64,000 bases of DNA from Bacteroidales bacterium (GTDB taxonomy: Bacteria; Bacteroidota; Bacteroidia; Bacteroidales; FEN-979). Position numbers and translations under genes: made by a program. Where the stretch lies: the NCBI GenBank assembly GCA_030681475.1, contig JAUXWT010000049.1, positions 7,991-71,990 of the forward strand. The letters run 5' to 3'. The notes under the pieces are model-generated. The model was not told the origin of the DNA and made no database searches. It saw only the letters and a list, made by a program, of their open reading frames with translations. Positions within the stretch are counted from its first letter, which is position 1, and each line of letters begins with the position of its first letter. Shown here piece after piece: positions 1-34,846 of the stretch.

Positions 1-26
1 ATTGGATCATTTAACAACAGTGCGCA

Positions 27-824
27 GTGAACAACAGTTACCATTCCATTCTCCCATTCCTTCCCGACCGAACAACCAAACCCCGACTAAGCGGCATCGC
101 GATGGTTATGGACAAAGGTCTCAGCGTGCGCGAGGCCGAAGACTTTGTTGAATCAGCAGGTCACCTTGCTGATTTTGTAAAACTTGGCTTTGGAACATCC
201 CTGGTGGGGAACAAAGTCAGGGAAAAAGTGAAGGTATATCGGCAGGCAAACATCAAAGTATATGTTGGCGGAACCCTTTTCGAAGCTTTCCTGGTCAGGA
301 ACCGGTTTGATGATTACCTGAAGTACATTGATAACCTTGGCCTTGATACCATTGAAGTTTCCGATGGCTCGATCATCCTGGAACATGAAATAAAATGCGA
401 ATATATTCGCAAATTGTCGGAACAATATACCGTACTTTCTGAGGTGGGCTCCAAAGAATCAGGCATGATCATTGCCCCCGGACGTTGGATCGAGATGATG
501 CAAAACGAATTGCAGGCCGGCGCTTTCAAGGTGATCGGGGAGGCGAGGGAAGGTGGAAATGTCGGGATATACCGTCCAACCGGTAAGGCCCATACGGTTC
601 TGATCAATAAAATTTTAGCAAAAGTACCGGGTGACCTGATTCTGTGGGAGGCGCCGTTGAAATCTCAGCAGGTTTGGTTTATTCAACATTTCGGTGCAAA
701 CGTGAACCTTGGAAATATTGCACCTGCCGAGCTCATCCCGCTTGAAACACTGCGCCTTGGACTAAGGGGGGATACATTTTTCAGCTTTCTGCCGGCTGAT
801 TTCAGTAAATTCCAACCGAAATAG
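27..824 (+). CDS. comA: (2R)-phospho-3-sulfolactate synthase, ComA family
   Basis: 265-aa ORF with a GTG start and an in-frame stop at 12-14 upstream. End-to-end resemblance to the ComA/YitD family from memory (KPRxSGIxMVMDKG, DFVKLGFGTS, VYVGGTLFE, IEVSDG). Confidence 0.75.
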   Translation: MNNSYHSILPFLPDRTTKPRLSGIAMVMDKGLSVREAEDFVESAGHLADFVKLGFGTSLVGNKVREKVKVYRQANIKVYVGGTLFEAFLVRNRFDDYLKYIDNLGLDTIEVSDGSIILEHEIKCEYIRKLSEQYTVLSEVGSKESGMIIAPGRWIEMMQNELQAGAFKVIGEAREGGNVGIYRPTGKAHTVLINKILAKVPGDLILWEAPLKSQQVWFIQHFGANVNLGNIAPAELIPLETLRLGLRGDTFFSFLPADFSKFQPK

Positions 825-863
825 AAAAATGGTGAAATGGCGAAATAGCGAAATGGTGAAATG
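824..863 (+). repeat. Octamer tandem array, 5 units (GAAAAATG GTGAAATG GCGAAATA GCGAAATG GTGAAATG)
   Basis: Read directly from the sequence. The array fills the whole spacer from the comA stop (822-824) to the aroE ATG (861-863), and that ATG is the last 3 nt of the last unit. Confidence 0.9.
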
Positions 864-1637
864 GACCAGGTCAAATTAATATTCGGGTTGATCGGGTTTC
901 CGCTGGGTCATTCGCGGTCGCCGGAATGGTTTAATGAAAAATTCAGATCCGCCGGACAAAATGAATATGAATATCGCCTTTTTCCTTTGGCCAGGATTGA
1001 GGAAGTTGCAAGTCTGCTGATAAAATATCCGGAACTTGCCGGCTTGAATGTCACCATCCCCTATAAAGAGAAAATTATTCCTTACCTCGACGAATTGGAT
1101 GAAACAGCCCGGTTGATCGGTGCGGTTAACACAATCATTATCATCCGAACGAAGGGGAAGATCCTGACCAGGGGTTTCAATACGGATGCACCCGGATTTC
1201 TTCAAACGCTCTCGGCCAGAATACCCCATAGTCCTGCGCTGATCCTTGGAACCGGTGGCGCTGCCAGGGCGGTTGCACATGCTTTGACCCTGAAAAATAT
1301 CCGGTTTACATTTGTTTCCTCCATTAATAAGGGGCCCGGAATCTTATCTTACAACGACCTCACCCGGGAGGTGATCAGCCATCATCTGCTTATCATTAAT
1401 GCCACACCACTTGGGATGTTTCCGGATATTGAAAGATTTCCGCCAATACCATACCATTTTCTTTCCGGTGATCACTTTTTATATGATCTGATCTATAACC
1501 CTGAAGAGACCGAATTCATCAAACGGGGAAAAGCCATGAACACCAAAACCATGAATGGCGCACAGATGCTGATAAACCAGGCAGAGTTATCTCTCCTAAA
1601 ATTCCTGAATCCCGTATTTAGAAGCATTCTCAATTAA
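861..1637 (+). CDS. aroE: Shikimate 5-dehydrogenase
   Basis: 258 aa with motifs GLIGFPLGHSRSP, NVTIPYKE, GAVNT, NTD and GTGGAARAV typical of AroE. Confidence 0.85.
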   Translation: MDQVKLIFGLIGFPLGHSRSPEWFNEKFRSAGQNEYEYRLFPLARIEEVASLLIKYPELAGLNVTIPYKEKIIPYLDELDETARLIGAVNTIIIIRTKGKILTRGFNTDAPGFLQTLSARIPHSPALILGTGGAARAVAHALTLKNIRFTFVSSINKGPGILSYNDLTREVISHHLLIINATPLGMFPDIERFPPIPYHFLSGDHFLYDLIYNPEETEFIKRGKAMNTKTMNGAQMLINQAELSLLKFLNPVFRSILN

Positions 1638-1668
1638 TTGTATTTGCAAATTTATGCCCTCTTTTGCT

Positions 1669-1676
1669 TAATTTTG
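1669..1676 (+). promoter_or_regulatory. Bacteroidota-type -7 box TAATTTTG
   Basis: Exact match to TAnnTTTG, 55 nt upstream of the ATG at 1731. Confidence 0.45.
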
Positions 1677-1730
1677 GGTGCGACAAGTTAAATTAACCTT
1701 ATCTGTTTCGCTCTGCCAGTATTCACAGCA

Positions 1731-2600
1731 ATGTCAAAAATTGCCCATATCATATATATTTCAGTGTTGACGATCATCGTCATTGTTGTGGTTATTGCGG
1801 TTACCCGCATCGGATTATCATACTACACGGTTGGAATTGAAGAGCGGTTCTTTCATCCTGACCATATAAAATTGAAACCCAGCGGGACCTGGGGCCATGG
1901 CATGGGCATCATCGGATCATTGTTTATGATAACCGGTGTTTCCATCTATATGGCAAGGAAAAGATTCAGGATATTCAGCCGGGTAGGCATCCTGAAACAC
2001 TGGCTGGAGTTTCACATTTTCCTGTGTTCGATGGGGCCGATCCTGGTGCTTTTTCACACCTCTTTTAAATTTGGCGGGTTGGTTGCCATCAGTTTCTGGA
2101 GCATGGTGGCGGTTTTCGTGAGCGGTATCATCGGGAGGTTCATCTATATCCAGATCCCGAGAACAATAGAAGGAAGGGAATTGAGTTTAAATGAAGTTAG
2201 GGAAATGAAGAGTGATATCGGTGACCATATCCGGAATCTTGTTTCCCTGAATGATGAAAGCTACAACATTATTGTTGATTCAACCAGGAAGAGGGTTGAA
2301 CGAAGTCATAAAAATTTCCTTGTTCGCTATATCAGGAAGTACAGCGATGACAGGAAAACTATCCGCAACGTAAAAACGGTCCTCAGGCAAAACAAAATTA
2401 CCAAATCGCAGCATAAACAAGTTCTGGCCCTGGTGAAGAGTGATATTTCACTGAACAGAAGGATTGAAAGACTTGTGACCATGCAAAATTTATTCAAATA
2501 CTGGCATGTCGCACATCTGCCGTTTGCACTTGTGATGCTGATCATCATGATCATTCACATTGCTGTAACCATCATTTTTGGTTACCGCTGGATATTTTGA
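1731..2600 (+). CDS. Polytopic membrane protein with His residues in TM helices (possible haem-b or ferric-reductase-like subunit)
   Basis: 289 aa with about 4 N-terminal TM segments, a basic soluble region and a C-terminal TM segment. His-containing helices are HWLEFHIFL, LFHTSF and WHVAHLPF. It overlaps the next gene by 4 nt. I do not recognise the family. Confidence 0.5.
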   Translation: MSKIAHIIYISVLTIIVIVVVIAVTRIGLSYYTVGIEERFFHPDHIKLKPSGTWGHGMGIIGSLFMITGVSIYMARKRFRIFSRVGILKHWLEFHIFLCSMGPILVLFHTSFKFGGLVAISFWSMVAVFVSGIIGRFIYIQIPRTIEGRELSLNEVREMKSDIGDHIRNLVSLNDESYNIIVDSTRKRVERSHKNFLVRYIRKYSDDRKTIRNVKTVLRQNKITKSQHKQVLALVKSDISLNRRIERLVTMQNLFKYWHVAHLPFALVMLIIMIIHIAVTIIFGYRWIF

Positions 2601-3934
2601 AGATGGAATTAGTATTCGAGAAAGTGGCTGTCTACACTGTGGCGATCCTCTTCTGCCTGGTGGTGGTCGTTATATATCTTCGAAAACAAAAACGGGATTC
2701 GAATAAGGTTGAGGAAAAAATCGTCAAGGCAAAGCTTGAGGGGTTGTATGAACCTGTATCACTTCATCCCGTAGTTGATGTAGGAAGTTGTATTAAAACC
2801 GGAGCCTGCATTGCTGCCTGTCCTGAAAAGGATATCCTCGGGATCAGAAATGGAAAAGCAACTACAATCAATGCTTCTCAATGCATCGGGCATGGCGCCT
2901 GTTTTCATGCATGCCCTACAGAGGCAATAACATTATGTATCGGCACCGAGAAGAGAGGTGTTGAATTACCGCATGTCGACCAAAACTTTGAGACTAACAT
3001 TCCCGGGATTTTCATTGCCGGGGAATTGGGTGGCATGGGCCTGATCAAAAATGCTGTGGAACAAGGCAAACAGGCTGTGGAAAATATTGTGAAGTCGATC
3101 CCTAAAAGCCATCAAGGCGCCTACGATCTGATTATTGTGGGAGCAGGGCCGGCAGGTATTTCTGCTTCGCTGACCGCAAAAAAACATCAACTTAAATTCA
3201 TCACCTTAGACCAGGATACCCTGGGTGGAACAGTTTTCACCTTTCCACGTTCAAAGATCGTGATGACATCGGCCATGGACTTGCCTCTTCACGGAAAAGT
3301 GAAACTCTTCGAAACGAGCAAATCAGAATTGCTTTCATTGTGGAATGACGTATTGACAAAAAACGACATTATAATAAAGGAAAATTCAAAGGTTGAGTCC
3401 ATTACTTCTGAAAATGATTATTTCAATGTGGTAACGCTAAACGGTGATAAATATACTGGTAAAAAGGTGTTGCTTTCCATCGGCCGGCGGGGAACCCCGC
3501 GAAAATTAGGCATTCCCGGAGAAACACTCGAGAAAGTAGCCTATCGGCTTCTGGAGCCTGAACTTATCAGCAATAATGAGATCATGATCGTGGGGGGTGG
3601 CGACTCCGCAATTGAATCTGCCCTACTGCTTGCGGACCAGAACAAAGTAACCATATCTTATAGAAATGAAGTATTCAACAGGATCAAACCTAAGAACAAC
3701 GAAAAGATCAACTTAGCCATGGCTTCAGGTAAGATCCAGGTTCTCTTTAATACCAACCCGATCAGAATTGAGAAAGAGTCGGTCACGCTTGCAAGAAATA
3801 CCGAAGGAGATGAATTGGGAATTAAAAATGACCTGATTTACATATTTGCCGGAGGTGAACTTCCAACACAATTTTTGCAGAAGGTCGGCCTGCACATCAC
3901 AAAAAAATTCGGAGAGGCGATTTTGAAACATTGA
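2597..3934 (+). CDS. Membrane-anchored Fe-S / FAD-NAD(P) oxidoreductase (thioredoxin-reductase-like fold)
   Basis: 445 aa with an N-terminal TM segment followed by RKQKR. Two ferredoxin-like motifs (CIKTGACIAACP, CIGHGACFHACP) are followed by dinucleotide-binding motifs IIVGAGPAG and IVGGGDSA. Confidence 0.8.
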   Translation: MKMELVFEKVAVYTVAILFCLVVVVIYLRKQKRDSNKVEEKIVKAKLEGLYEPVSLHPVVDVGSCIKTGACIAACPEKDILGIRNGKATTINASQCIGHGACFHACPTEAITLCIGTEKRGVELPHVDQNFETNIPGIFIAGELGGMGLIKNAVEQGKQAVENIVKSIPKSHQGAYDLIIVGAGPAGISASLTAKKHQLKFITLDQDTLGGTVFTFPRSKIVMTSAMDLPLHGKVKLFETSKSELLSLWNDVLTKNDIIIKENSKVESITSENDYFNVVTLNGDKYTGKKVLLSIGRRGTPRKLGIPGETLEKVAYRLLEPELISNNEIMIVGGGDSAIESALLLADQNKVTISYRNEVFNRIKPKNNEKINLAMASGKIQVLFNTNPIRIEKESVTLARNTEGDELGIKNDLIYIFAGGELPTQFLQKVGLHITKKFGEAILKH

Positions 3935-3944
3935 TAATTTATCG

Positions 3945-4034
3945 ATGCAAGCAATGGAGACAATGCAAGCAAGGAAAACAATGCAAGTAATGAAGACAAT
4001 GCAGGCAATGAAGGCAATGCAAGTAATGGCGCGA
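3945..4034 (+). repeat. Nonamer tandem array, 10 units (consensus ATGCAAGCA / ATGAAGACA, alternating to give an 18-bp super-repeat)
   Basis: Read directly from the sequence. Nine of the ten units start with an ATG in frame with the downstream cytochrome ORF. The array ends exactly at the ATG at 4035. Confidence 0.9.
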
Positions 4035-13762: not shown

Positions 13763-13769
13763 ATAAATA

Positions 13770-13801
13770 GTGAAATGGCGAGATGGCGAAAAGGTGAAAT
13801 C
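13770..13801 (+). repeat. Octamer tandem array, 4 units (GTGAAATG GCGAGATG GCGAAAAG GTGAAATC)
   Basis: Read directly from the sequence. The array lies in the rpoD-rpe spacer and ends 26 nt before the rpe ATG. Confidence 0.85.
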
Positions 13802-16067: not shown

Positions 16068-16076
16068 ATTAAAATA

Positions 16077-18981
<2,905 letters not shown>

Positions 18982-19031: not shown

Positions 19032-19766
19032 TCAGTTTACTCTTTTAATGGATCCCGCACCTGACACATGCTGATCAATCTCGCTTGGAGATCCTTTGTA
19101 CTTTACACTGCCTGCTCCGGAAATTCCGGCACGAATCCTTTTGGAAACATTGATCTGTGCATTGCCTGCTCCGCTGATGTCGATGTCGTAGGATTCGGCA
19201 AGCAAGTCATATCCGAATATGTCGGAAGCGCCGGATAGATCCATTTTAACATTTACCGCAGACCCGGAAAACTTCATTTTGCTGGCGCCACTACAGTCAA
19301 GCTTCAGATTTTGTACTTCAATATTCAATTTCGAATCAGATGCGCCAGATGCTTCAATCCTGAGTTCAGGTACTGCCAACATCCCATCGGTATCGATATC
19401 AACTGCCCCGCTCACATCAATTATTTTCAGGTCTTTCACTGTCACATATACTTTCATGACCGTGACCTTGCGAACCGGCTTTTTAGTTTCAATTCTAAGT
19501 ATCCCACCCACAACATCTGTACGGATAACTGGCAGCAGGTTGGCATCTGCTTCCACGGTAACCTCTTCTACGGCGCCTTGTTTTAGTATAATATCAAAAG
19601 CGCCAGAAACCTCTATTCCATCGAATGCGGTAACCTTGCGGGTCTCTTTCAACACATTTCCATCTCCCTGCATCCCTCCGATCATGGTGCAACCCGCGAA
19701 AAGAGTCGATATCCCCAGGAACAGGCTACCGAAAATTAACATTGAAAAAAATCTCGTTGTTTTCAT
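19032..19766 (-). CDS. DUF2807 / head-GIN-domain putative adhesin, lipoprotein-like
   Basis: 244 aa with signal peptide plus Cys (LFAGC). It contains repeated SGA(G/S).. beta-helix-like units (VSGAFDI, ASGASDS, CSGASKM, LSGASDI, ISGAGNA, ISGAGSV, VSGAGSI). Confidence 0.65.
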   Translation of the reverse strand: MKTTRFFSMLIFGSLFLGISTLFAGCTMIGGMQGDGNVLKETRKVTAFDGIEVSGAFDIILKQGAVEEVTVEADANLLPVIRTDVVGGILRIETKKPVRKVTVMKVYVTVKDLKIIDVSGAVDIDTDGMLAVPELRIEASGASDSKLNIEVQNLKLDCSGASKMKFSGSAVNVKMDLSGASDIFGYDLLAESYDIDISGAGNAQINVSKRIRAGISGAGSVKYKGSPSEIDQHVSGAGSIKRVN

Positions 19767-19824
19767 AGGATTTGAATTTAATTGATTAGACGTTTTTTTT
19801 GGATTTGGTTACAAATGGTAAGGT

Positions 19825-19860
19825 GGACAAGGGGACAAGGGGACAAGGGGACAAGGGGAC
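19825..19860 (+). repeat. Perfect octamer array (GGACAAGG) x4.5
   Basis: Read directly from the sequence. It contains four GGGG runs separated by ACAA (19831-19858). Confidence 0.95.
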
Positions 19861-19897
19861 TTTTGCAATTTGATTTTGCATTTTGGTTTTTGCATTT
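19861..19897 (+). repeat. 13-bp T-rich repeat x3 (TTTTGCAATTTGA TTTTGCATTTTGG TTTTTGCATTTC)
   Basis: Read directly from the sequence. It abuts the GGACAAGG array and ends at the stop codon of the 19898-20950 gene on the minus strand. Confidence 0.75.
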
Positions 19898-20950
19898 CTA
19901 TTTCAGTCTGACATTCCCATATTCACTCCGTACGATCACCGTTCCTGAAGGAGACTCGCTGCCCCCTATCGTTCCCTTGTAGCTTTTTTCGGTCGGTGAA
20001 GTTGACCGATAGGAGAATTTTGCTTTTTCCTCCGGAAAATCCAGGTCACAAAATTTCAGAAGGGCTTCAATTCGATATTTTGCCTGTTTACTAAGACCAA
20101 TTGAGACATCACCAAACTTGTTCCTGATATTGACCGAAGTAAAATCGGCCGGCATTTCACGAATCTTGCAACTACCGTATTGAATATCAAGGCTCAGGCT
20201 TTGTTCAATCCTTTGAATGTCAATGTCGGTAAATTTCGACTTGCTATCAACCGCCGACGAGTTCTCCATATTCAGTTTGCCACCTTCGAATACAACACTG
20301 AGCGCGATTATTTTCTCTGCATCAAGGTTGGAGAATTTAGAGTCCAGTCTTAAACTGCCGGCATAGTCAAGGTTCATATCAGAATATTTCAGGGACAACA
20401 CTGCTCCTTTGATCCAATTCACCCTTGCTTTGCTGAATTTTATATCTAAAAGGTTATCTGAGTTCCCGAGTTTATTTACGTCAAGGTTACCATAACCCAG
20501 GTTGATCCGTGCTTTACCCTGTAATTCATTGATAAAAATATTACCAAATTTATTGGTAACATCCAGATTGATGTTCGTTGGCATGTTTATCATATAATCG
20601 ATCGAAAAACGTCCTTTTCCTGAATTTTTTAATTCCTGGATAGTCGTAGTCGCGGTTATTGATGATGGAGTGTCGGTAAAATCGATTGAAATGCGTTTAA
20701 ACTTTTTTTCTGCTTCCTCCTGATTTGCCGCTGTAACAGTGATGGTAACATCGAAGGAAACCGATTTTTTTTCCCAGTTTGTACAGTGGACTTTCCCAAA
20801 ACGGTTGTTTACCGTCAACTGTGCATCAGGGTTCACCGGAAATTCCCTTTTAATAACCCTGGTGAACTCTTCACCTGCCGTTGCTCCCTTTATCCCCAGC
20901 AGGAAAATCATCATTAAAATGAATAGCGCTATTTTTATTATTGTTTTCAT
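19898..20950 (-). CDS. DUF4097-like putative adhesin (beta-helix repeats)
   Basis: 350 aa with a signal peptide and repeated short beta units (..FG.V.I.., ..GN.D...). It sits in an operon with an ECF sigma/anti-sigma pair, as is typical for this family. Confidence 0.55.
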   Translation of the reverse strand: MKTIIKIALFILMMIFLLGIKGATAGEEFTRVIKREFPVNPDAQLTVNNRFGKVHCTNWEKKSVSFDVTITVTAANQEEAEKKFKRISIDFTDTPSSITATTTIQELKNSGKGRFSIDYMINMPTNINLDVTNKFGNIFINELQGKARINLGYGNLDVNKLGNSDNLLDIKFSKARVNWIKGAVLSLKYSDMNLDYAGSLRLDSKFSNLDAEKIIALSVVFEGGKLNMENSSAVDSKSKFTDIDIQRIEQSLSLDIQYGSCKIREMPADFTSVNIRNKFGDVSIGLSKQAKYRIEALLKFCDLDFPEEKAKFSYRSTSPTEKSYKGTIGGSESPSGTVIVRSEYGNVRLK

Positions 20951-21511: not shown

Positions 21512-22080
21512 TTCGTACTAAACATTTTGTTATAACTATTTTGCTTCAGGAGGCCAATCAACTTCTGACGTGCCCTTGAGTATCGGGTTCGTGAAAGTTG
21601 GTTTGAAATGTTCAGGATCTGCGCGATCTCTTCATGATCATATCCTTCGAGTAAAAACAGGGACAAAACAACCCTGTACTCATCAGAAAGTTGTGTAATC
21701 GCCATTCTGATTTCTGCAACCCGGCATTGGATCTCTTCCTCTCTGTCCTCCTCAACGTTATCAAGTAATTCGTATGCCACTTCATCAATATACACAGTTT
21801 CTTTACACTTACGCAGGTAATCCAGGGAACGGTTGATAACGATCCGCTTAAGCCATGAACCAAAACTACCTTCGCCGGTATAGCTATGCAGGCGCTCAAA
21901 GGCATCCAGAAACGATTCCTGCATGATATCCTCAGCCTCGGCGGTATCGTTCACTATTCTCAGGCTTGTGTTGTACATGGCTTTATAATAAAGTTTATAA
22001 ATTCTGAACTGAGCATTTCTGTCACCGTTCAGACAGGCATTGATCAGGTCTTGATGAACGTTGATGTATTTACCTTCCAA
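21508..22080 (-). CDS. ECF-type RNA polymerase sigma-70 factor
   Basis: 190 aa with region 2 (AEDIMQESFLDAFERL..., SWLKRIVINRSLD) and region 4 (EIAQILNISNQLSRTRYSRARQKL). The start is a TTG. Confidence 0.85.
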   Translation of the reverse strand: MEGKYINVHQDLINACLNGDRNAQFRIYKLYYKAMYNTSLRIVNDTAEAEDIMQESFLDAFERLHSYTGEGSFGSWLKRIVINRSLDYLRKCKETVYIDEVAYELLDNVEEDREEEIQCRVAEIRMAITQLSDEYRVVLSLFLLEGYDHEEIAQILNISNQLSRTRYSRARQKLIGLLKQNSYNKMFSTN

Positions 22081-22155: not shown

Positions 22156-22187
22156 GGACAGGGGGACAAGGGGACGGGGGGACGGGT
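22156..22187 (+). repeat. Octamer array x4 (GGACAGGG GGACAAGG GGACGGGG GGACGGGT)
   Basis: Read directly from the sequence. It is related to the 19825 array and carries G-runs at 22161-22186. Confidence 0.9.
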
Positions 22188-22193
22188 GAAATT

Positions 22194-22228
22194 GTTTGCA
22201 TTGTCTGCATTGTTTTCATTATTTCATT
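22194..22228 (+). repeat. Nonamer array x3.5 (GTTTGCATT GTCTGCATT GTTTTCATT ATTTCATT)
   Basis: Read directly from the sequence. The reverse complement AATGCARAC matches the unit of the 3945-4034 array. Confidence 0.85.
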
Positions 22229-22263
22229 TTTTGTAACTATCTACAAACGATTAACTTTGCACC

Positions 22264-23154
22264 TTGTTAAAAAAACTCCGCATACCAGTCTATTTTTATC
22301 CGGTGGCCGCCATGCTTTTCTGGGGTCTTTCGTTCATATGGAGTTCAATGCTTCTGCAACATTACCAGCCTGTCACCATCATCTTTATCCGTTTGATCAT
22401 TTCTTCGGCATTCCTGTTCACACTGATCTATTTTTTAGGCAGAAATGAAAAAGTGGACCGGAAGGATTACAAGTTGATCTTATTAAGTGCCCTGTTCAAT
22501 CCATTCTTCTATTTCCTGGGTGAAAATTACGGTTTGAAATACTCATCCCCAACAATTGCAGCTGTTGTAATAGCTACCATTCCTGTTTTTGCTCCATTGG
22601 TCGGTTATCTGAGTTTCAGGGAAAAGCTGACACCAGTCAATTTCATTGGTATTGCTGTCTCATTTGCTGGCGTCATACTTATGCTGGTCACCCGTGATCT
22701 TTCGCTGGCTGCAGATATCAAAGGTATCCTTTTTCTCTTTTGTGCGGTATTTTCCGCATTATTATACTCTGTCACACTCCGGAAACTGACCTTGAAATAC
22801 TCTGCCATCTTGTTGGTTGCCTTACAAAACCTGATCGGGATTTTTCTTTTTCTCCCATTTTTTCTTTTTTACGAAGCAAAGTTGGCCATTGCTGTACCAA
22901 TTACTTCTGAGATAATTGTATCCATGTTTCTCCTTGCCATTCTTGCCTCCTCCCTGGCATTTGTATTTTTCGCCCATTCGGTGAAGTTACTTGGGATCAG
23001 CAAATCGAATATTTTTTCCAATTTAATCCCTGTATTTACGGCATTTTTTTCGTATCTCATTCTTGCTGAACTTTTTAACATTCAAAAAATCACAGGAATT
23101 GCATTGGTCATCTTCGGAGTGTATCTGTCGGAAAGGACAAAGAAAAGAGTTTAA
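22264..23154 (+). CDS. DMT-superfamily (EamA) transporter
   Basis: 296 aa with about 10 TM segments arranged as two EamA-like halves. The start is uncertain (TTG). Confidence 0.8.
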   Translation: MLKKLRIPVYFYPVAAMLFWGLSFIWSSMLLQHYQPVTIIFIRLIISSAFLFTLIYFLGRNEKVDRKDYKLILLSALFNPFFYFLGENYGLKYSSPTIAAVVIATIPVFAPLVGYLSFREKLTPVNFIGIAVSFAGVILMLVTRDLSLAADIKGILFLFCAVFSALLYSVTLRKLTLKYSAILLVALQNLIGIFLFLPFFLFYEAKLAIAVPITSEIIVSMFLLAILASSLAFVFFAHSVKLLGISKSNIFSNLIPVFTAFFSYLILAELFNIQKITGIALVIFGVYLSERTKKRV

Positions 23155-34166: not shown

Positions 34167-34834
34167 ATGAAAAACACCCTGCTCCTGTTCTTACTTTTCC
34201 TCGCCTGGAATAGTGCTTTCACCCAAACGGAAAAAAAAAGTGTTACAGCCATCCAGGTAGCCGATGCACCAAAAATTGACGGGATACTCGACGAACCTGC
34301 ATGGAAATCTATTCCTTCGGCCAGCGGTTTTGTGCAGCGCGAACCTTACAACGGAAAACCGGGTACATTGACCAAACCAAAGGTTCGTATGACAGCCTCA
34401 AAATATTTTTCGGACGACGCGACAGGCAGATCGTTACCAACGTGGTGGAGGCAAAATACATGATCACAAGCGCCATGAGTATAGACCTGAGAGCACGTCA
34501 TTATTGGGTCTCCGCCCCATATTACGATTTTTCGATACTCCTGCGTGATGGGTCCCTCCTGCCGGCCGGTTATTCCGGAGATCCGGATATCAATTACAAC
34601 CTCTTTAACCTCGATCTCACATATATCTTGAACTTTGCCCCGGGAAGTCAGCTATCGATCGTGTGGAAGAATGCGATCAGCACGTTTGATCATGATATTC
34701 AACCTGGTTTCTTTAAGGATATAAAAAATACTATTTCCGCTCCATCATCGAACAGCTTCTCTGTTAGGGTGCTCTATTATCTGGATGCGCTGTATTTTAA
34801 GATGAAGCGAGGTAGCGAGGTAGCGAAATGGTGA
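34167..34834 (+). pseudogene. Remnant of a DUF5916 / CBM9-like outer-membrane protein gene (N-terminus plus C-terminus, interior missing, frame change)
   Basis: Frame 0 gives a signal peptide plus APKIDGILDEPAWKSIPSASGFVQREPYNGKPG, the N-terminal motif of proteins of about 700 aa. Frame 2 (from about 34440) gives the family C-terminus (...FNLDLTYILNFAPGSQLSIVWKN...VRVLYYLD). The total is only about 220 codons. Confidence 0.6.
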
Positions 34835-34846
34835 AATGGTGAAATT
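34807..34846 (+). repeat. Octamer tandem array, 5 units (GCGAGGTA GCGAGGTA GCGAAATG GTGAAATG GTGAAATT)
   Basis: Read directly from the sequence. It lies between convergent genes, and the last unit overlaps the TAA stop (34845-34847) of the minus-strand kinase gene. Confidence 0.9.

Follow-up and report, generated by a model that had tools for sequence, protein, structure and literature searches.

The comA-aroE junction and its octamer array

Near the start of the window, by which we mean the whole 64-kb stretch of DNA that was analyzed, a comA-like gene (Pfam PF02679, 4e-86) is followed on the same strand by an aroE-like gene encoding 258 aa (Shikimate_dh_N, PF08501, 6e-23), and the spacer between them consists of tandem octamers of the family GYGAAATR. 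The features of this junction are the following.

102..824, plus strand, comA-like gene of the (2R)-phospho-3-sulfolactate synthase family; ATG 102 according to an independent caller, longest ORF from 27; stop TAG 822-824
816..863, plus strand, GYGAAATR octamer array of six units, CCGAAATA GAAAAATG GTGAAATG GCGAAATA GCGAAATG GTGAAATG; unit 1 overlaps the end of comA and unit 6 contains the aroE ATG
829..879, plus strand, small ORF from array ATG 829; 16 codons, stop 877-879
837..848, plus strand, small ORF from array ATG 837; in frame with aroE, ended after 3 codons by TAG 846-848
853..879, plus strand, small ORF from array ATG 853; 8 codons, stop TAA 877-879
861..1637, plus strand, shikimate dehydrogenase gene (aroE-like); its ATG 861 occupies the N-terminal position conserved in congeners, whether or not they have arrays

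Direct reading of positions 824-863 gives GAAAAATG GTGAAATG GCGAAATA GCGAAATG GTGAAATG, the five GYGAAATR octamers that the original prediction had placed after the comA stop (822-824), and TRF reports the same tract (827-864, period 8, 4.8 copies; also 817-864, period 24). The spacer had been described as these five units and nothing else, but a sixth, degenerate unit (CCGAAATA, 816-823) precedes them inside the end of comA. Because it covers the final codons of comA, the TAG of that gene is itself in phase with the repeat. The final ATG (861-863) indeed opens the aroE ORF, as had been proposed: an independent gene caller, run on a 100% identical Logan contig, placed the ComA stop and the AroE start at the same bases. 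The small ORFs foreseen for the ATGs at 837 and 853 have the expected 3 and 8 codons, closed by TAG 846-848 and TAA 877-879. Both ATGs had been taken to be out of frame, which is correct for 853 but not for 837, which is in frame with 861, 24 nt away. The list of upstream ATGs also lacked the one at 829, which opens 16 codons and shares its frame with 853. On its antisense strand, the array has neither stops nor ATGs. As the period is not a multiple of three, the stop or start triplet of a unit meets all three frames within three units.

Rfam 15 covariance models gave zero matches at E<=1 over window positions 1-3000, the RNA fold of the comA-aroE spacer was no better than that of shuffles (z=0.14), and a promoter or terminator was looked for in the spacer and none was found. 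comA and aroE are probably cotranscribed. When AroE and the Usp-like protein encoded farther along the window were looked up as exact proteins, a single Logan contig (SRR13727517) was recovered, with 100% identity over 3137 nt including the array. The same look-up with the sigma-like protein returned no record, and a scan of metagenome contigs for the exact 24-nt comA flank gave no match.

The unit family recurs in the window at 13770, 16077 and 34807, as originally listed, and also at 34823; these copies are real. A two-unit pattern has 11 matches in the window, against 0.19 expected from shuffles. The further arrays are the following.

13763..13801, plus strand, GYGAAATR array directly after the TAA of a sigma-factor-like gene, then 27 nt of unique sequence before the next ATG
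16068..16125, plus strand, GYGAAATR array occupying the whole interval between the TAA of a Usp-like gene and the ATG (16123) of a DNA-ligase-like gene
34806..34846, plus strand, composite array of AGCGAGGT units, then GCGAAATG GTGAAATG GTGAAATT, after a plus-strand gene at a convergent junction

Logan SRR13727517_133338 (24 kb), the only other public contig of this population, ends 34 nt past the Usp-like stop (array at 16072-16124, locus L135), that is, inside the array; arrays therefore break short-read assemblies. Arrays of other units were also seen in the window. At 3945-4028 (plus strand), 10 nt past the stop of the previous gene, a 9-nt array with an 18-nt higher order (ATGCAAGCA x9) is in frame with a 562-aa ORF, so that about nine in-frame ATGs (MQAMETMQARKTMQVMKTMQAMKAMQVMAR) precede a lipoprotein signal peptide (MKLIISLLALLVGC); the last of them is probably the true start. 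Units related to this array, AAACAATGC and AAGCAATGC, form ~27 arrays genome-wide. Back-to-back arrays at 19820-19897 (AAGGGGAC x5, then TTTTGCA x5) start right where the minus-strand gene 19898-20950 stops and end ~50 nt before the minus-strand gene start at 19766. At 22156-22233, GGACAGGG x3.5 and then ATTGTTTGC x5 lie in a divergent spacer, between the end of a gene at 22080 (minus) and the start of one at 22264 (plus).

As for the array as a leader of aroE, we compared it with a start profile built from 498 confident starts of the host genome. These starts follow the Bacteroidota pattern, with an A/T-rich, G-poor leader and an A peak at -11 to -13. The aroE start context scores -3.49, the 3rd percentile of the 498 starts, while random ATGs average -3.09. 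In Flavobacterium johnsoniae, A at -3, -6, -12 and -13 promotes initiation (Baez 2019, PMC6847099); aroE has G, G, C and G at these positions and thus departs from the optimal Bacteroidota initiation region. The host genome's own start profile rules out the array as an optimized leader for initiation lacking a Shine-Dalgarno sequence.

Arrays across the host genome and their placement

The host is an uncultured freshwater Bacteroidales with a genome assembly of 4.24 Mb in 111 contigs (98.7% complete). Beyond the comA-aroE locus, genes were called with a crude purpose-made caller (3364 genes, 90% coding), and nonredundant short-period arrays were collected with TRF (periods 6-10, at least 3 copies). 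In this genome there are 83 GYGAAATR arrays, each with 2-17 units; 73 are intergenic. TRF arrays with 6-10-nt periods number 758, and 558 of them (74%) are intergenic, although only 14% of the genome is noncoding. Their periods are mostly 7 (333 arrays) and 8 (260), with 39 at 6 and 74 at 9, and a few dozen units recur, including AAATAGCG, AAATCGT, ACGCGTC, ACACGTG, AAACAATGC and AAGGGGAC. Arrays occupy about one in seven junctions overall: 13.7% of the co-directional, 17.1% of the convergent and 13.5% of the divergent ones. In the GYGAAATR unit itself, six of the eight positions are invariant over ~80 loci and across species, with only transitions at positions 2 and 8.

About 200 of the 758 short-period arrays fall inside ORFs of the crude caller, among them 12 sense arrays of ACGCGTC, on the strand without a stop; some in-ORF arrays may be translated repeat tails and others false gene calls. 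Two candidate causes were set aside. MutS and MutL are intact, so the genome is not repair-deficient and the loss of mismatch repair is ruled out as a trivial cause. A mobile element with conserved flanks was likewise rejected, on inspection only, as the arrays share nothing beyond partial units.

By the crude gene calls, 36-41 GYGAAATR arrays lie in sense and 12-14 in antisense orientation between co-directional genes, with a further 7-12 in divergent and 11-13 in convergent spacers. Where the upstream gene is on the same strand, the array overlaps its stop or starts no more than 10 nt from it in 49 of 54 cases. Of the 41 sense arrays located between co-directional genes, 24 extend all the way from stop to start. 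The informative spacers are those with more than 20 nt free: 13 of 17 have the array anchored at the stop and none at the start, with 3.4 of each expected under uniform placement. Arrays are therefore anchored at stops and not at starts, and are start-proximal only in filled spacers. The upstream stop codon is TAG in 23 of 49 cases (47%), compared with 16.4% genome-wide (p=8e-7). In several cases, the ORF reads 1-5 units into the array before TAG, which means that the array often supplies the stop codon, and ~10 arrays hold the ATG taken as the downstream start. In other genomes with GYGAAATR, 42 of 77 arrays begin at the end of an ORF of at least 80 codons. The comA-aroE array is thus not special to this gene pair: arrays start at or near the upstream stop, often fill the spacer and turn over rapidly between species.

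Orientation is biased as well. Sense GYGAAATR arrays outnumber antisense ones by about 3:1 overall, and the bias reaches 20 to 1 for arrays dominated by GCGAAATA (p=2e-5). Arrays of GCGAGGTA, AAATCGT, AAGTGAC and GACGCGT are likewise oriented with a stop triplet on the sense strand. Considering all families, 356 arrays lie in co-directional spacers; a stop is present on the sense strand only in 141 and on the antisense strand only in 87 (p=4e-4), and the former lie at a median of 2 nt from the stop codon. Whether the rule is a sense-strand stop or a purine-rich sense strand is confounded, with 123+63 arrays concordant and 40 discordant. Within arrays, TAG-bearing units (ending in AAATA) precede ATG-bearing units (ending in AAATG) in 36 cases and follow them in 18, and GCGAGGTA units, where present, are always at the 5' end. 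In any context, the 5'-to-3' order of the variants is GCGAGGTA, GCGAAATA, GYGAAATG and then degenerate GTGAAATT or GTGAAAAT. Since this order is the same in sense, antisense, convergent and divergent arrays, it looks intrinsic rather than imposed by a stop-then-start function.

Turnover among relatives and taxonomic range

comA and aroE are adjacent in all 18 relatives whose aroE locus reached upstream sequence. This pairing (27-1637; loci L002-L020) is also kept in one relative from another family of the order, and comA next to aroE is an unusual conserved neighborhood for a coenzyme-M-type enzyme in Bacteroidota. The contents of this spacer and of two other orthologous spacers are given below, by genome.

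comA-aroE spacer, G015: 4 GYGAAATR-family units
comA-aroE spacer, G004: 6 GYGAAATR-family units
comA-aroE spacer, G013: 9 units, mostly GCGAGGTA
comA-aroE spacer, G005: 15-nt two-unit remnant
comA-aroE spacer, remaining relatives: unrelated 29-75 nt, or 2-8 nt, or overlapping genes
Usp-like to ligase spacer, own genome: 6 GYGAAATR units
Usp-like to ligase spacer, G015: 3 units
Usp-like to ligase spacer, G014: GCGAGGTA array
Usp-like to ligase spacer, G005: unrelated 9-mer array (ATGAAAGCA)
Usp-like to ligase spacer, G004 and G002: array absent
Sigma-like to epimerase spacer, own genome: 4 units
Sigma-like to epimerase spacer, G015: 3 units, with the ATG at their end
Sigma-like to epimerase spacer, G014: 7-nt spacer
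Sigma-like to epimerase spacer, G004: 5-nt spacer
Sigma-like to epimerase spacer, G002: AAATCGT array

As can be seen, unit number differs between species at all three orthologous junctions. The counts of 4, 5, 6 and 9 at a single junction fit the suggestion that these are slippage-prone tracts. At these junctions, array position is conserved, the unit interchangeable and the arrays dispensable. In a tree of ComA plus AroE, three array-bearing and three array-free species form one moderately supported clade, and the fourth array-bearing species lies elsewhere. This two-protein tree, on which a single origin of the comA-aroE array was considered, is weakly to moderately resolved, and gains and losses are not confidently countable on it. 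comA ends in CCGAAATAG in most species, and the start residue of aroE is constant and frequently preceded by GAA (GAAATG); consequently, both native ends resemble the unit.

Among the 40 genomes of the genus, 28 contain three tandem GYGAAATR units, with 0 to 153 hits per genome across the genus, these species not being independent samples; a reversed-pattern control gave ~0 in the same 40 genomes. One of two genomes from other genera of the family has them, and none of the 298 genomes from ~147 other families of the order does. The GYGAAATR family is confined to the host family within the order, with scattered matches elsewhere, and the original prediction of a lineage-specific repeat family stands. 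When species-representative genomes were searched for four units, the matches listed were mostly uncultured freshwater Bacteroidales metagenome-assembled genomes (MAGs); also among the matches listed were a few MAGs from Flavobacteriales, Chitinophagaceae and Hymenobacter, as well as single contigs from MAGs labeled as other phyla. Arrays of at least four units (GTGAAATG, or GCGAAATG in L035) were seen at loci L035, L038, L048 and L056, in MAGs labeled Cloacimonas, Verrucomicrobiaceae, Gemmatimonadaceae and Kiritimatiellia, and three of these four arrays immediately follow the stop of a 423-677-codon ORF. The arrays in other phyla could reflect independent origin, horizontal spread or misbinned contigs. 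Per 100 kb, genomes of the genus carry between 0 and 27 arrays of 7-8-nt units, as against 5-10 in two other families, and the unit vocabulary is partly common to species within the genus.

Origin of the arrays and relation to known repeats

We consider it probable that the array in the comA-aroE spacer is a single copy of a short tandem repeat that is dispersed and lineage-specific, belongs to the long-simple-sequence-repeat (LSSR) class and is shaped by slippage and by the neutrality of sequence after stop codons. Arrays would grow and shrink by slipped-strand mispairing and would persist only where a compact genome has a function-free stretch, between a stop and any promoter or leader belonging to the following gene. 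Ancestrally, comA and aroE would have been only a few bases apart, and such tiny spacers would become filled. A tiny ancestral spacer whose native ends already resembled the unit (comA CCGAAATAG, aroE GAAATG) would give an array flush from stop to start. Because the 8-base period puts TAG and ATG in three frames and the antisense strand has neither, sense arrays could abut or replace a stop, and sometimes a start, harmlessly. The orientation bias and the impression that arrays "supply" codons would then result from this harmlessness filter and not from a dedicated function. The effect on aroE is likely neutral to mildly negative, through a greater distance between stop and start, decoy ATGs and a leader rich in G, and spacer length may mildly tune comA-aroE coupling.

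A dedicated module for initiation or reinitiation, as the original prediction had it, would be an intercistronic element with stops in three frames and then AUGs in three frames on an unstructured purine-rich leader. We regard this as unlikely, and the same is true of its more specific form, in which the array promotes or tunes termination-reinitiation on the polycistronic mRNA and unit number sets the strength of coupling. It would account for the filling of the spacer by 24 of 41 sense co-directional arrays, for the ~10 arrays that hold the presumed start ATG, for the preference for the sense strand (~3:1 overall, 20:1 for GCGAAATA-dominated arrays), for the tendency of TAG-bearing units to come before ATG-bearing ones and for the unstructured comA-aroE spacer, and a similar role has been proposed for TAACTGA repeats (MacGregor 2015, PMC4679880). 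However, roomy spacers have their arrays at the stop and never at the start (13 versus 0 of 17), convergent spacers, which have no start downstream, hold 11-13 arrays, antisense orientation is seen in 12-14, and the TAG-before-ATG polarity is unchanged in convergent and antisense arrays. Array rates are equal at co-directional, convergent and divergent junctions (13.7%, 17.1% and 13.5%). The aroE context lies at the 3rd percentile and lacks A at -3, -6, -12 and -13, congeners have spacers of 2-15 nt or of unrelated sequence at comA-aroE (natural "deletions"), and other unit families substitute at other junctions. Taken together, the anchoring at stops, the arrays in convergent spacers and in antisense orientation, the poor aroE start context and the natural deletions among congeners contradict the idea of an initiation module.

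Slippage and post-stop neutrality, our preferred explanation, also leave something unaccounted for. Pure slippage does not explain why one 8-mer is found at ~80 loci and recurs across the genus at 0 to 153 hits per genome, nor why periods 7 and 8 dominate; nor does it explain the shared unit vocabulary, the internal polarity or the strength of the orientation bias. These features beyond slippage keep two further readings in play at low probability. It is improbable that the arrays are tandem sites for a lineage-specific nucleic-acid-binding protein, recognizing GYGAAATR at 8-nt spacing on RNA 3' ends and leaders or on DNA, and equally so that such a protein acts posttranscriptionally on array-bearing transcripts. 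The invariance of six of eight unit positions (with transitions only at 2 and 8), the limited unit vocabulary common to the genus, the orientation bias relative to transcription and the restricted taxonomic range would all suit a binding site, but sister species have different unit families or no array at the same junction, a single genus spans counts of 0 to 153, no candidate protein was found, and the array-flanked genes have no common theme. Still less probable is an active process, such as templated repair insertion, ectopic gene conversion or an unrecognized mobile activity, that writes arrays at the 3' ends of genes or copies them there, in place of slippage on the spot. The same unit with the same internal order of variants at many unlinked loci, the sharp 5' edge of arrays at stop codons and the arrays of at least four units after long ORFs in mostly aquatic MAGs of other phyla (mostly GTGAAATG in the out-of-order matches examined) point that way. 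Against this, conserved flanks, terminal inverted repeats and target duplications are absent around the arrays (by inspection), as is an associated gene; the native stop and start contexts at comA-aroE resemble the unit, which fits growth in place; and the matches outside the phylum could be binning contamination. We give a correspondingly slim chance to arrays being placed or copied at the 3' ends of genes by a lineage-specific process, able to pass from one lineage to another, as ready-made junction cassettes, with three-frame stops and then three-frame starts in fixed order. If true, such cassettes would join or re-space genes without dedicated signals in a phylum lacking Shine-Dalgarno initiation.

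What first catches the eye as a start-supplying repeat is a local view of a genome-wide habit. The genus, with 0-153 hits per genome and units swapped at the same junction, is a good natural system for studying the origin and upkeep of repeats. For annotation, arrays account for spurious upstream starts, unusual TAG usage, short repeat-read C-terminal tails and assembly breaks.

Among known repeats, the phase-variation simple sequence repeats of host-adapted pathogens lie in ORFs or promoter spacers of surface or restriction genes and switch them on and off. The arrays described here resemble them as slippage-prone tandem repeats whose unit number may alter expression, but they follow the stops of housekeeping genes genome-wide, with no evident on/off consequence. 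The cyanobacterial STRR heptamers of Calothrix PCC 7601 are cited in PMC4692102. They comprise several tandem 7-nt families at many intergenic sites. They resemble the present case in that several unit families are dispersed intergenically within one lineage and differ in phylum and units; we know of no stop-codon anchoring rule for STRR. REP/BIME elements are palindromes, whereas the array has no inverted repeat (fold z=0.14).

The LSSR class comprises units of 5-11 nt in prokaryotes (Mrazek, Guo and Shah 2007, as summarized in PMC4679880 and PMC4692102); according to these summaries, its function is not established, and an origin by polymerase slippage has been proposed. The heptamers of Xanthomonas and Nostoc and the TAACTGA repeats are both placed in this class by their own papers (PMC4692102, PMC4679880). 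GYGAAATR arrays are likewise tandem beyond chance and present at many, mostly noncoding loci, and they share with LSSR the head-to-tail 7-8-nt units and the abundance in some nonpathogen lineages with absence from close relatives. What differs is that this octamer is specific to one uncultured freshwater Bacteroidales family and that a stop-flush rule and three-frame TAG/ATG are documented for it. In a Beggiatoaceae genome, sets of TAACTGA mostly end ~1 nt upstream of the start codon (PMC4679880). These repeats are also short, direct, mostly intergenic, gene-oriented, endowed with stop triplets and patchy in taxonomy, with a translational role that is proposed only; however, they have another unit and length and are start-proximal, whereas GYGAAATR is anchored at the upstream stop. 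In Xanthomonas (GGGAATC) and Nostoc PCC 7120 (GGGGA(C/T)T), the heptamers lie 0-50 bp from the stop of the 5' ORF or overlap it, on the coding strand (Rehm et al. 2015, PMC4692102). The stop proximity of GYGAAATR arrays is of the same kind (49 of 54 within 10 nt; 13 of 17 versus 0), and in both cases one unit is spread over numerous intergenic sites (~100 for the heptamers) and, at conserved junctions, varies extensively in length and sequence between close relatives. The heptamers are 7 nt long, G-rich and capable of forming G-quadruplexes, and belong to other phyla, while GYGAAATR is 8 nt long and has no G runs and no predicted structure. These GGGAATC/GGGGAYT heptamers are the closest published parallel. 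The original prediction regarded the repeat family as undescribed, which is true of the GYGAAATR unit but not of its class (PMC4692102, PMC4679880): GYGAAATR is a new, lineage-specific unit within a class of repeats known since 2007 and earlier from cyanobacteria, Xanthomonas and Beggiatoaceae.
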